From assembly GCA_963696385.1 (NCBI GenBank), contig CAVOKF010000006.1, forward strand, positions 32,001 through 96,000: 64,000 bases of DNA. The letters are read 5' to 3'. Below the pieces are notes generated by a model. That model did no database searches and was not told the origin of the DNA. It saw nothing but the letters and a program-made list of their open reading frames with translations. The position numbers were made by a program, and so were the translations under genes. Shown in pieces: positions 28,302 through 39,955 of the stretch; positions within the stretch are counted from its first letter, which is position 1, and each line of letters begins with the position of its first letter. The stretch is from an uncultured delta proteobacterium (GTDB taxonomy: Bacteria > Myxococcota_A > Polyangia > Polyangiales > Polyangiaceae).

Positions 28302-30179
28302 TCACCCGTTGCGCCGCCGCTCAAGTGCCGAAATGTCGCGCACGGCACCGCACGAGGCGCTCGTCGTCATTAGCGCGTACGCCTTGAGCGCGGTCGATAC
28401 GTGGCGATCGCGGTTGGGTCGCCACGCGTCCAGACCGCGGGCGTCCATGCGTCCACGTCGAGCCTCAAGGTCGGATGGGCCAAGGAGAAGTTCGATGCGT
28501 CGAGACGGGATGTCGATTCGAATGCGATCGCCATCTTCGATCAAGGCGATCGCCCCGCCTTCCGCGGCTTCGGGCGACACGTGTCCGATGCTGAGACCCG
28601 AGGTCCCGCCGCTGAAGCGGCCGTCCGTGATGAGGGCGCAGACTTGCCCGAGGCCTTTGCCCTTGAGAAATGAGGTGGGATAGAGCATTTCCTGCATGCC
28701 CGGTCCGCCGCGCGGGCCCTCGTAGGCGATGACGACGACGTCGCCGGGGGCGATTCGATCGGCCAGGATGGCTTCGCACGCAGCCTCTTGCGAATGGAAG
28801 ACCCGCGCGCGGCCGTCGAAGCAGAGGCAAGACGGGTCGACGCCCGCGGTCTTTACGATGCATCCATCTTCGGCGATGTTGCCCTGCAGGACGGCAAGGC
28901 CGCCGTCGCGCGCGTAGGCGTGTTCGGAGTCGCGGATGCAGCCCTTTGCGGGGTCGTCGTCGGTCGATTCGAAGTAGGTGTCTTGGGAGAACGCGTCGCG
29001 TGTACGGACCCCGGCGGGCGCCGCGAGCGCCCGTTGGCGCGCGCGAGTCGCGGCCGTGGGCCGCCGAATGTCGTTTGCGTCGATTGCCTCGCCGATCGTG
29101 GTGGCGTGGACGGTGAGCGCGCTGCGGTGGATGAGACTCATGCGATCGAGTTCACCGAGGATGGTGAAGATACCGCCCGCGCGATGCACGTCCTCCACAT
29201 GGTAGTTGGAGGACGGGGCGACCTTGCACAGGTTCGGGACCTTTCGCGAGAGTCGATCGATGTCGGCCATGCCGAAGGCAACGCCCGCCTCATGAGCCAT
29301 GGCGAGCACGTGCAGTACCGTGTTCGTGGATCCGCCCATGGCAATGTCCAGAGCCATCGCGTTCTCGAACGCCTCGAACGTCGCGATGCTGCGAGGAAGC
29401 ACGGAGCGGTCGCCGCCGACGTAGTATCGCTGGGTCATTTCGACGAGCTGGCGCGACGCGTTGTCGAACAGCTCGCGACGCATGATGTGGGTGGCCAGGA
29501 GCGTACCGTTTCCGGGCAGCGCGAGTCCGATGGCCTCGTTCAAGCAGTTCATGCTGTTGGCGGTGAACATGCCCGAGCAGGATCCGCAGGTCGGGCAAGC
29601 CGCGGCTTCGATACGGGCGAGCTCCTCGTTGGCCACGCGCGCGTCACTCGAGGCGATCATCGAGTCGATGAGGTCGAGCTTGCGCGCGATGGGCTGTCCG
29701 TCGCGGCCTCGCGTTCCGACCAGGCGGCCGGCTTCCATGGGCCCCCCGGAAACGAAGATGGTGGGAATGTTCAGGCGCAGGGCCGCCAGGAGCATCCCCG
29801 GCGTAATCTTGTCGCAGTTCGAGATGCAGAAGAGCGCGTCGGCGCAGTGCGCGTTGACCATCGTCTCGACCGAGTCGGCGATGAGCTCGCGGCTCGGCAG
29901 CGAGTAGAGCATCCCGCCGTGCCCCATGGCGATGCCGTCGTCCACGGCAATCGTGTTGAACTCGACGCCCCAGCCTCCCGCCGCATCGATGCTCTTTTTC
30001 ACCTGCTGGCCGACGTTGTGCAAATGGACGTGCCCCGGAACGAATTGCGTGAAGCTGTTGGCGATGGCGACGATCGGCTTTTCGAAGTCGCCGTCGGTCA
30101 TACCCGTGGCGCGCCAGAGGGCGCGCGCGCCGGCCATGTTGCGGCCCGAGGTGGCTGTACGACTGCGGTAAAGAGGCAT
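28302..30179 (-). CDS. ilvD: Dihydroxy-acid dehydratase
   Basis: [64 protein letters not shown]. Confidence 0.97.
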
Positions 30180-30247
30180 GGCGGCAGGCACCGTAGTGGA
30201 GGATTTGGTGACGTTCTAGGCGAGCGGTCCGAAGCTGAGTCGTATCG

Positions 30248-31174
30248 TCAAAAGGAGTCTGGATGGGCGCCCGCACGCTCGATCTCGGCGAGGCATGCGA
30301 GCGTCTCGAGCGCGTCGAGGGTGTCCTTCAGTGTCGGGATCGCTCCTAGCGCGCGGGAAAAGCCGCCGTCGTCGGTCTGGCAACCGGAAATGTAGCGGCG
30401 AATGCGGTCGCAATCGGTCGGCCGACGGCCGAATCGCTGAAACAGACGCGTGCCCGCACGCTGCACCTCGATGCTGGTCGACGTGGCCTCGGGCGTCACG
30501 TTGAAGCCCCACGGTTCGCCCTCGCACCGCGATGCGTAGACGCAAACCTCGCTAGCGATGCCGACGCCGAGCGCGTCGGCCAGTTCGACCGCGATGGCCG
30601 TGTCGACGAGGTTGGGCCCCGGAGAGCCGAATCCGCCGCCGGTGCACGGCAGTGCGCACAGCCATCTCGCGAGCGCATCGCGGATCGCGAGGTCAAGAGC
30701 GCCGCCCCACGTCTGCAGCACTTCGACCGACCGCCAGATGTCGAGCAATGTCGCGGCAGTGGGGGACGCGGTCGAGAGAGCTGGCGCGCGCGAATCTGGC
30801 TCGCTGGCCGGCGGGCCGAGGTCTCTGGCGATGCGGTCGAGAAAACGGTCGGGGCCCCGGCGCGGCGGGGCACCCACAAGGCGGAGGGCGGAGAGCGTAG
30901 CCCAGCCAATGACGAGGGTTGAGTAGTCGCCGGAGCCGTGTTGCTGCGCCTGAAGCCAGGTCGCGCATCGCTCGCGATCAGGAACGTCGGCGCCGAGCCA
31001 TCGAAGAGCGGCGATCGCAAAATAGGTGTCCGGAGCGTTCGGTTCTTCCACGCCCCATGCCCTGTAGAAACAAAACCCTCCGTCGGGCGTCTGTCGACCC
31101 AGCGTGTATCGACAGGCGCGGTCTGCCATTGCCGTGTCCCAGGGGCGAACGACCGCGACCCCCTTTGTGTTCAT
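30248..31174 (-). CDS. Prenyltransferase/squalene-cyclase repeat (alpha/alpha barrel) protein
   Basis: RQTPDGGF, AQQHGSGDY, GGGFG, CQTDDGGF repeats; 4-nt overlap with the upstream HEAT gene. Confidence 0.75.
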   Translation of the reverse strand: MNTKGVAVVRPWDTAMADRACRYTLGRQTPDGGFCFYRAWGVEEPNAPDTYFAIAALRWLGADVPDRERCATWLQAQQHGSGDYSTLVIGWATLSALRLVGAPPRRGPDRFLDRIARDLGPPASEPDSRAPALSTASPTAATLLDIWRSVEVLQTWGGALDLAIRDALARWLCALPCTGGGFGSPGPNLVDTAIAVELADALGVGIASEVCVYASRCEGEPWGFNVTPEATSTSIEVQRAGTRLFQRFGRRPTDCDRIRRYISGCQTDDGGFSRALGAIPTLKDTLDALETLACLAEIERAGAHPDSF

Positions 31175-38546: not shown

Positions 38547-39836
38547 TCAGCGCTTGGCGTTGGGGAATGCCTTCCAGCCTTGGTACTGGGCTCGCGAGCC
38601 GAGCTCGTCCTCGATCCGGGCGAGCTGGTTGTATTTGGCGAGTCGTTCGCCGCGGCAGGGTGCGCCCGTTTTGAGTTGTCCGGCGCCCGTCGCGACGGTG
38701 AAGTCGGCGATGAAGTCGTCGGTCGTTTCGCCCGAACGATGGCTGACGACGCAGCGATAGCCGGCCGCGCGTGCCGTCCGCATCGTTTCGAGCGTCTCGG
38801 TAAGGGTGCCGACCTGGTTGAGCTTGATGAGGACGGCGTTGGCCACGTGCTCTTCGATTCCCTTGCGCAGGATCGCGGACTGCGTGACGAAGATGTCGTC
38901 GCCGACGAGCTGAATGCGACCGCCCAGACGCTCGGTCAGGATCTTCCAGCCGGCCCAGTCGTCCTCCGCGAGGCCGTCTTCGATGAGGACGATGGGAAAC
39001 TGGCGCGCCCAGTCGTCCCACAGGTCAACCATCTGCTCGGGCGTGTAGCGGCGCCCATCCGACTTGCGCAGCACATAGCCGCCGCCCTCGAAGAATTCGC
39101 TCGCCGCCGGATCCAGAGCGAGCACGACGTCTTGACCCGCCCGAAATCCCGCTTGCTCGATGGCGCGAAGGATCACCTCGATCGCTTCCACGTTGGCGCG
39201 CAGGTTGGGCGCGAAGCCGCCCTCGTCGCCGACGCCGGTGCCATACCCCGCCTTCTTCAAGGTCGCCTTGAGCGCCTGGTACACTTCCGCACCCATCTGC
39301 AAGGCGTGGCGAAAGGTCTGCGCCCCCACCGGAGCGACCATGAATTCCTGGAAGTCGACGTTATTATCGGCGTGAACCCCCCCGTTGAGGACGTTGAACT
39401 GGGGGACCGGCAGCAGGTTCGGCGCGCCGTCGGTGGCAAGCTCGACATAGAGCGGCCGGCCGTGCGCCGCGGCACGGGCTCGGGCCACGGCAAGAGAGGC
39501 GGCGAGGATTGCGTTCGCCCCGAGGCGCGCCTTCTGGGGGGTTCCATCGAGGTCGCAGAGCGTCCGGTCGATGGCCGCTTGATCTTCCGCATCGGCGCCC
39601 ACAAGCGCGCGGGCGATGGCGCCGGTCACGTTCCCCACGGCCTTGAGCACGCCTTTGCCCGAGAACCGCGCCTTGTCGCCATCGCGAAGCTCGACGGCTT
39701 CGCGGCTTCCCGTCGATGCGCCCGAAGGGATCGCTGCGCGTCCAGTCGCGCCTCCTTCGACGACAACATCGGCCTCGACCGTCGGAAGCCCTCGAGAGTC
39801 GAGGATTCCACGAGCCCGAATTTCTTTGATCCGCAT
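38547..39836 (-). CDS. eno: Enolase (phosphopyruvate hydratase)
   Basis: [55 protein letters not shown]. Confidence 0.97.
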
Positions 39837-39900
39837 CGTCTTGCCTCCTCTTATCGAGTCGCGGCAAGACGTCCAATCTCCCGCGACGCATAGCATGCCC

Positions 39901-39955
39901 GCAGGAGTCATTGGCGGTGTTCACGGGCACCGCGGTTACGGCGGACTCCACCGCC
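39901..39955 (-). promoter_or_regulatory. Fluoride riboswitch 4
   Basis: GGCGGTGGAGTCCGCC-GTAACCGCGGTG..CACCG-CCAATGACTCCTGC upstream of eno. Confidence 0.9.

Follow-up and report, generated by a model that had tools for sequence, protein, structure and literature searches.

Fluoride riboswitches (RF01734) up-regulate crcB, Na+/H+ antiporters, ppa and eno, according to the available passages of a review (PMC11139923). In E. cloacae FRM such a riboswitch leads a ppaC-uspA-eno-gpmA-crcB island, which experiments showed to be fluoride-induced and to confer resistance (PMC5533749). Here we describe a locus with four such aptamers in the DNA of an uncultured soil myxobacterium of the Polyangiaceae. 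The stretch of 64,000 nt that was analysed as a whole, referred to below as the window, comprises positions 32,001-96,000 on the forward strand of contig CAVOKF010000006.1 in assembly GCA_963696385.1 (6.94 Mb, 8 contigs, 96.4% complete). We consider it very probable (roughly 0.85) that about 12 kb of this window hold the complete fluoride-riboswitch regulon of the host, organized in three live units and one decayed unit.

The locus shares its aptamer family and its core cargo (Fluc/CrcB, Na+/H+ antiporter, pyrophosphatase, enolase) with the regulon as reviewed in those passages, but it has four aptamers in one place, one of them decayed. It also carries genes beyond those in the review passages (the original gene list of the family was not compared): a dynamin-like GTPase, a HEAT-repeat protein, an alpha/alpha toroid, a dihydroxy-acid dehydratase and an AAA_16 ATPase. 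With GI3, the island of E. cloacae FRM that holds ppaC-uspA-eno-gpmA-crcB-orf5249, it has in common riboswitch-led genes for CrcB, enolase, a pyrophosphatase (PPase) and a universal stress protein (USP). GI3, however, is one operon behind one riboswitch, with gpmA and a family II ppaC, whereas the window has three live units, one dead unit and more cargo; its ppa is of family I and is the sole soluble PPase, and the locus is not a demonstrated island. Riboswitch-led blocks of crcB, eno, ppa and usp, including a resistance-conferring genomic island, are of an already published kind. What is novel relative to these cited papers is the cargo of GTPase, toroid with HEAT protein, dihydroxy-acid dehydratase and AAA_16 ATPase, the decay of a fourth unit, and a riboswitch relic at a second crcB.

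The entire window was scanned with Rfam cmscan at the gathering score of RF01734, which is 34 bits, and the part from 27 to 42 kb with a permissive E-value. An earlier sequence-only reading of this DNA had placed four crcB-motif aptamers here, each 5' of a gene block, and all four sites were recovered (Table 1). Aptamers A, C and D exceed the gathering score and B falls under it. When the whole assembly was searched at E<=0.001, the same four sites were found and none more. All four keep the P1 loop (GGAGU) and the 3' tail (AUGACUCCU) in the cmscan alignments and in an alignment of 21 sequences, and each is followed by a gene block in the same orientation. In the case of the weak aptamer B this block is a pseudogene. 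The cargo that had been named was found in profile searches: crcB, family I PPase, enolase, MFS transporter, IlvD and a remnant of the antiporter and USP genes. The P2 of aptamer B is lengthened by an insert, and over its first 31 nt B shares 94% identity with aptamer C (repeat D11); hence B is a paralogue of C with an enlarged P2 rather than a chance match.

Table 1. Coordinates (in the window) of the aptamers, genes and remnants of the fluoride locus and of the mobile element at its left border
Feature	Position	Strand	Evidence and remarks
Aptamer A	32484-32551	-	RF01734 52.7 bits, E 9.5e-12; canonical GAUGGAGUUC / CUGAUGACUCCUAC type; leader of HEAT-toroid-ilvD unit
Aptamer B	32715-32790	+	RF01734 28.9 bits, less than the gathering score; E 1.3e-4 in 15 kb; leader of pseudogene unit
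Aptamer C	34064-34134	+	RF01734 42.1 bits; leader of crcB operon
Aptamer D	39895-39964	-	RF01734 40.1 bits; leader of enolase-MFS unit
HEAT-repeat protein, 429 aa	31171-32460	-	TTG start 32460, Shine-Dalgarno (SD) sequence GGAGG 32471-32467; PF13646 HEAT_2 90.5 bits, PF03130 57 bits
Prenyltransferase-beta-like alpha/alpha toroid, 308 aa	30248-31174	-	ATG overlaps HEAT stop (ATGA); PF00432 38 bits, part of profile
IlvD dihydroxy-acid dehydratase, 616-aa E. coli type	28302-30191	-	likely ATG 30179; PF00920 and PF24877
CPA-type cation/proton antiporter pseudogene	32902-33765	+	tblastn and three-frame alignment vs intact ~400-aa homologues of L095/L049
USP fragment	33771-34017	+	PF00582 37.9 bits, profile positions 60-115 of 141
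CrcB/Fluc fluoride channel	34177-34575	+	likely ATG 34192 after GGAGG; PF02537 89.9 vs 32.9 bits; TIGR00494 84.5 vs 80.45
DUF190 (COG1993, PII-like) protein	34592-34993	+	PF02641 121.1 bits
Family I inorganic pyrophosphatase	34997-35542	+	PF00719 141.5 vs 23.5 bits
Bacterial dynamin-like GTPase	35460-37226	+	likely ATG 35523, overlaps ppa end; PF00350 Dynamin_N 86.8 vs 27 bits, residues 63-221
MFS transporter	37254-38498	-	second gene of enolase unit; PF07690 133.3 bits
Enolase, 429 aa	38547-39836	-	ATG 39836, SD GAGGAGG 39850-39844; TIGR01060 607.1 vs 300 bits; Enolase_N and Enolase_C
AAA_16-type P-loop ATPase	40173-40850	-	just upstream of aptamer D; PF13191 34.6 bits
Insertion sequence (IS)	24746-27968		repeat D3 ends 24746-24845 and 27869-27968, 100% identical; abuts ilvD 3' end
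rve_3/HTH_32 transposase open reading frame (ORF) of the IS	25097-26746		Pfam

Genes were identified with Pfam and NCBIfam profiles, and second copies were sought by tblastn in the host genome (G000, with contigs C3, C7, C8 and others; G008 and G022 are relatives of the same genus, and L-numbers denote fetched loci). The intact units read HEAT-toroid-IlvD behind aptamer A, crcB-DUF190-ppa-dynamin-like GTPase behind C and enolase-MFS behind D. Their genes are tightly spaced, with an ATGA overlap of HEAT and toroid, gaps of 17 nt between crcB and DUF190 and of 3 nt between DUF190 and ppa, and an overlap of ppa with the GTPase gene. The first gene of the minus-strand unit that begins at 32460 had been taken for an enolase; it encodes the HEAT-repeat protein instead, and the same unit holds the prenyltransferase-like toroid. 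In functional terms, unit C would export fluoride, remove pyrophosphate and add a membrane GTPase. Unit D would supply a transporter together with a replacement for, or a further copy of, the glycolytic enzyme that is the main target of fluoride inhibition, and unit A would place the HEAT protein, the toroid and, probably by co-transcription, an E. coli-type dihydroxy-acid dehydratase under aptamer A.

Twelve terminator-like sites occur between 28 and 41 kb and none of them falls within a leader, which leaves no candidate intrinsic terminator there. When leader A is folded without ligand, the 3' tail GCUGAUGACUCCU (32504-32492) pairs perfectly over 13 bp with AGGAGUCAUCAGC (32453-32441). The partner strand is codons 3-7 of the HEAT gene, and the helix encloses the SD sequence GGAGG and the TTG start. 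Compared with shuffled sequences, the ligand-free leader folds have z values of -5.7 (A), -2.8 (C) and -3.7 (D), and in all three the tail pairs with downstream sequence; in C and D the SD sequence and the AUG are held in a second hairpin. If these folds are correct, fluoride as an Mg-F complex would stabilize the pseudoknot of each aptamer, and formation of the pseudoknot would withdraw the 3' tail from a competing helix that occludes the ribosome-binding region. The freed start region would then turn translation ON. With the tail predicted to leave a helix over the ribosome-binding region, the leaders look like translational ON switches.

Bacterial dynamin-like proteins include DynA of Bacillus and IniA of Mycobacterium. 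The GTPase of unit C resembles other members of this group (PF00350) in having a long helical region behind its Dynamin_N GTPase domain, but it reaches just 54 bits against the 1600-bit cut-off of the DynA equivalog, and its clade is marked by being linked in genomes to fluoride riboswitches, to crcB and to DUF190. Orthologues are 59% identical in G022 and 54% in G008, and a hydrophobic stretch near residues 465-487, which might bear on membrane binding, is conserved in the alignment of the three. Relatives were sought with this alignment in contigs of one genome per species, and the best 80 of 452 were taken as loci; among the lineages represented are Acidobacteriota, Binatia, Myxococcota, Methylomirabilota and Gemmatimonadota. 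By tblastn the neighbours in these 80 loci are DUF190 (42 loci), crcB (35), enolase (21), antiporter (18), MFS (9), ppa (7) and IlvD-family genes (4), and DUF190 adjoins crcB in 35 of the 42 loci that have it.

Aptamers in these loci were sought with a covariance model of our own, built from 13 of the 21 genus aptamers after eight rows had been dropped as misaligned by MAFFT or low-scoring. At E<=0.01 it gave 121 matches in the 1.04 Mb of the 80 loci. One or more matches are present in 69 loci, and in 17 of the 80 a match lies at most 500 nt upstream of the GTPase gene on the same strand; six of the 11 loci without a match are short contigs. At its gathering score Rfam reports 26 aptamers in nine rechecked loci, eight of which had been picked for many matches with L039 as the ninth, and in every one of the nine an aptamer immediately precedes the GTPase gene. 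With our own model four or five matches are present in some of the 80 loci, so that four aptamers per locus are unexceptional. L054, L071, L073, L090 and L099, which are loci of Binatia-like and 'delta proteobacterium' metagenome-assembled genomes, have five matches each with the same model within about 15 kb; hence, fluoride loci with several switches are common in soil lineages of this kind. In the searchable literature we found no paper joining dynamin-like proteins with the fluoride riboswitch or crcB.

Within the genus, the order crcB-DUF190-ppa-dynamin behind an aptamer recurs in G022, with 80% identity to the window in CrcB and 76% in DUF190. In G008, eno and CLC-crcB-DUF190 each have an aptamer of their own in front, and the dynamin-like gene is adjacent. 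The host has a second crcB-DUF190 pair on C3, 72-74% identical. At C3 ~462327-462397 (L182:1327-1397), 230 nt upstream of this second crcB, our genus-trained model scores 35.5 bits. Rfam has no match in that upstream region at E<=1, and the site has the 3' tail AGUGACUGCU instead of AAUGACUCCU, which breaks the pseudoknot. From its sequence it is read as a decayed riboswitch relic and not as a fifth switch. The ppa of unit C exceeds the PF00719 cut-off, and its best NCBIfam equivalog gives 112.8 bits against a cut-off of 200. No second soluble PPase was found in the genome, where the alternative is a membrane H+-PPase on C8; a search of the host genome for DHHA2, the mark of a family II PPase, found no match.

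The locus enolase is 84% and 79% identical to the riboswitch-led enolases of G008 and G022, respectively. In a tree of 39 enolases it groups with those of G008, G022, one Polyangiales locus, two Anaeromyxobacteraceae loci and two Acidobacteriota-type loci with support of 100/97, and all of these clade-mates come from fluoride loci. The second host enolase, on C3, stands outside this clade on a long unresolved branch. The tree includes few housekeeping enolases, and a duplicate row, L068 (= L023 place), was dropped from it. Since housekeeping enolases are thinly sampled, we keep to the claim that the riboswitch-led enolase is a separately evolving paralogue of old standing, and no direction of transfer is claimed. 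The MFS transporter that follows enolase has weak NCBIfam subfamily matches, including PgtP/UhpC types, and eno-MFS pairs recur in L034 and L075. The AAA_16 ATPase is 65% identical to L021:1024-1797, the first gene behind the aptamer L021:906-972 in G022. That locus (G022 contig C279) has divergent aptamers at 685-762(-) and 906-972(+); one leads a PP2C phosphatase, the other the AAA_16 ATPase, a 703-aa dynamin paralogue and DUF1415. On another contig of G022 (C503, L022) a 53-bit aptamer at 4037-4103(-) directly precedes an HPr ORF at 3620-4129(-) (PF00381, 73 bits). This gene for an HPr-like protein of the phosphotransferase system is convergent with a riboswitch-led enolase, and is another gene linked to phosphoenolpyruvate (PEP) in a fluoride regulon.

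The toroid of unit A gives an AlphaFold model with a pLDDT of 91.2. Its best Foldseek matches are the beta subunits of RabGGTase and GGTase3 (TM 0.65-0.70, 14% identity) and single-domain squalene-hopene-cyclase-like proteins. The alpha/alpha6 toroid fold is common to it and to both prenyltransferase beta subunits (RabGGTase, GGTase3, FTase) and class II terpene-cyclase-like toroids (1ltx_B, 6j74_B, 8paj_A), but the window protein is only 13-17% identical to them and merely 308 aa long. Eukaryotic prenyltransferase beta subunits are likewise encoded beside a helical-repeat protein; that neighbour is a PPTA-repeat alpha subunit, whereas here it is a HEAT protein, and relatives of the toroid adjoin enolase and PEP synthase genes rather than isoprenoid genes. 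The relatives number 31 among 5.8 billion clusters. With regard to the Zn-binding Asp/Cys/His triad of prenyltransferase beta subunits, the 31-sequence alignment has no His in invariant columns and one nearly invariant Cys (C217).

We collected 61 metagenome loci with a toroid gene. It adjoins enolase in 16 of them; in 13 of those 16 enolase is the gene just upstream, on the same strand. In 22 of the 61 it is directly upstream of a PEP synthase gene, with two more loci in which the genes overlap by 18 nt, a count to be read against the just 41 loci in which 1.5 kb or more of sequence is available downstream. In several loci an eno-toroid-ppsA triple stands after the RNase P RNA, with no aptamer. 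L151, L155, L158, L160, L164 and L170, all metagenome contigs, have the conserved row RNase P RNA, enolase, toroid, PEP synthase, also aptamer-free. Toroids 41-46% identical to the window copy lie beside dynamin-like, DUF190 and AAA_16 genes in L113-L115, or, in L118, near a MutS_V pair that an aptamer match precedes. The pair in L118 consists of two tandem MutS domain V ATPase genes, 2862-5965(-), behind a 42-bit match to our own model at 6031-6092(-), and is convergent with the toroid gene. Rfam was run on 15 of the 61 loci, picked for enolase or dynamin-like neighbours, and reported three aptamers; in L156 alone does an aptamer lead an operon that includes the toroid, crcB-DUF190-eno-toroid. 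Because of its enolase and PEP synthase neighbours the toroid family appears to be tied to PEP-forming enzymes and to be drawn into fluoride loci at times, and the rows without an aptamer suggest that the link to PEP-forming enzymes is the primary one. We dropped the idea that the toroid is a regular direct target of the riboswitch, as our own model has 10 matches in the 61 loci and none upstream on the toroid strand. An apparent toroid-PpsA fusion in L125 was also rejected, the toroid match and the long ORF being in different frames.

The HEAT protein is single-copy in the host genome by tblastn and has weak partial NCBIfam matches to HEAT proteins of the NblB/CpcE type. A predicted complex of HEAT protein and toroid scored 0.00, a result that, with controls not run, has no bearing either way. 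The ORF after the toroid in L115 was considered as a HEAT partner and proved unrelated. The arrangement of toroid, HEAT protein and ilvD is peculiar to the window. IlvD itself is above the equivalog cut-offs of NF009103 (1052.5 vs 710 bits) and TIGR00110 (783.4 vs 618 bits). The second IlvD-family gene of the host, on C7, encodes a 583-aa protein that is 36% identical and matches the NCBIfam dihydroxy-acid dehydratase of the ~560-aa type (775.7 vs 644 bits). The E. coli type is the sole IlvD-family match in G008 and occurs in many genomes of the genus; those copies are 83-92% identical to each other. No paper was found that joins dihydroxy-acid dehydratase with the fluoride riboswitch.

Unit B is a decayed duplicate composed of a sub-threshold aptamer, a frameshifted antiporter gene and a USP fragment. 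Relative to its intact homologues the antiporter pseudogene has at least five frame changes, and its last ~70 codons are gone. The USP fragment follows directly, with its N-terminal ~55 residues lost and one further frameshift. Short-read contigs of four soil-metagenome runs from one study, which may include the source sample, cover every break with no indels and two single-letter differences; therefore, the frameshifts are no assembly artefact. The neighbouring 10 kb of genes are intact.

Could the aptamers be chance matches, or RNAs that sense something other than fluoride? The sole point for this is the sub-threshold score of B (28.9 bits), and we hold it to be extremely improbable in view of E-values of 1e-7 to 1e-11 in the window, the confinement of all four genome matches to 7.5 kb and cargo typical of the published regulon. 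The score of B also speaks against our own interpretation, and so do several other observations. In leaders C and D the link between folding of the aptamer and release of the SD sequence is not obvious from minimum-free-energy folds. The HEAT protein was not found to be a regular partner, with phmmer ORF matches in just 2 of the 80 dynamin loci and no tblastn match in the 61 toroid loci, so that the composition of unit A is found here alone. In five same-genus genomes the similarity to the locus ilvD stops at the borders of the coding sequence, with no aptamer upstream, which means that ilvD stands in a different context here; given the 68 nt between the toroid stop and its start, it could have its own promoter. 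It might then be that riboswitch A governs the HEAT protein and the toroid alone, ilvD being an independently expressed housekeeping gene downstream, as the 68-nt gap and the aptamer-free same-genus copies (78-81% identical to that of the locus) would allow. We think this somewhat unlikely, because ilvD is co-directional with the toroid, no terminator-like site occurs in the interval, and IlvD-family genes stand behind fluoride aptamers elsewhere: L039 has dyn-eno-ilvD (ilvD 67% identical) behind an Rfam-level aptamer, and in L054 and L090 such an aptamer lies 82 and ~73 nt upstream of a 40%-identical family member. Another suggestion is that aptamer B is still functional and, by read-through, exerts tandem two-input control of the crcB operon with C, 1.3 kb downstream. 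B does keep all conserved nucleotides of the P1 loop and the 3' tail, its sequence can be read as allowing a P2 of 6 bp with a single bulge, and B and C are co-directional with only pseudogenes between them. Yet B is under the gathering score, the fold of its leader does not surpass those of shuffled sequences (z -1.4), unit C is led by an aptamer of its own, and a terminator-like site at 33162-33177(+), inside the antiporter pseudogene, lies between the two; such control seems quite doubtful, and a decayed unit B is the better reading.

The sequence-only reading had also proposed a mobile island that carries extra copies of Mg2+-dependent target enzymes. The second half of this holds for eno (a 55% identical copy on C3) and for dihydroxy-acid dehydratase (C7) and fails for ppa, the only PF00719 match in the genome, for which there is no spare. 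As to recent acquisition of an island that combines fluoride export with spare fluoride-inhibited Mg2+ enzymes, there is a published precedent (PMC5533749), and several features favour some mobility. The IS that adjoins ilvD has identical 100-nt ends, and elsewhere the window holds transposases (three types in all: DDE_3, DDE_Tnp_1 and rve), a tyrosine integrase, a DUF3363 protein and a group II intron. Presence is patchy, with an RF01734 match in just 8 of 24 other genomes of the genus; the unpublished G010 is counted among the 24 and is without a match. For the toroid, 400 other genomes of the phylum gave no match at E<=1e-5, and, judged by sequence, it is alone among the genes of the locus in looking foreign. 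Against these stand a normal GC content (0.66-0.69 at the locus, 0.65-0.665 for the contigs), the lack of any tRNA in the window and of any repeat pair bracketing 28.3-40.9 kb, one dead unit, and an identity of 76-84% between eno, crcB, DUF190 and ilvD and their counterparts in the same genus, as among ordinary orthologues. A recent island is thus possible, although we would bet against it; we conclude that the locus is an IS-flanked regulon of the genus, patchily retained and rearranging, with at least one foreign gene, and is no demonstrated island.

At its borders the locus has the IS on the left side only, and the integrase is 8 kb to its right. Copies of the ~100-nt palindromic IS end (CTAGTACC...GGTACTAG) are at 16508-16703, 24746-24845, 27869-27968 and 61951-61998, and a 300-nt repeat, 99% identical, is at 18090-18389 and 60048-60347. 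Domains D1-D4 of the group II intron (RF02005, 107 bits) occupy 7119-7345 and are followed by a reverse-transcriptase ORF (PF00078) at 7680-8480. A DruA (Druantia) domain ORF of 291 aa, possibly a fragment, is at 18591-19466 among transposases (PF14236, 111.7 bits), and a tandem array of ~18 copies of a 46-nt unit at 44266-45117 lies in overlapping long ORFs without a Pfam match. Overlapping PhoU and MgtC ORF calls are at 21927-23344, 5 kb left of the locus with the IS between. In G008 (L023) an MgtC gene and a metallophosphoesterase gene are beside the riboswitch-led enolase. Since MgtC adjoins that enolase in G008, genes of Mg/phosphate homeostasis may have been in the ancestral locus.

What might the additional cargo do? 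Two undescribed protein modules, the dynamin-like GTPase and the toroid, may belong to a fluoride response of soil bacteria that goes beyond export and enzyme replacement, a suggestion that we make tentatively and regard as rather unlikely as it stands. If it is correct, the GTPase could act on a membrane stressed by influx of hydrogen fluoride and CrcB-mediated efflux. The toroid, here translationally coupled to the HEAT protein, could work with the Mg2+-dependent enolase, PEP synthase and dihydroxy-acid dehydratase. It might shield or regulate enzymes of PEP and 2-keto acids when fluoride blocks enolase and PEP is short.

Fluoride toxicity limits the biodegradation of organofluorine compounds (PFAS) and fluorochemical biosynthesis, and current engineering of resistance uses exporters and overexpressed enolase or PPase, as given in the review passages (PMC11139923). 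The locus offers a compact and comparable set of riboswitch-marked genes, in which crcB-DUF190, eno and the dynamin-like GTPase are conserved cargo and the antiporter and USP are dispensable and decaying. Whether the GTPase and toroid families have a role in fluoride or PEP stress is a question that is directly testable in laboratory strains.

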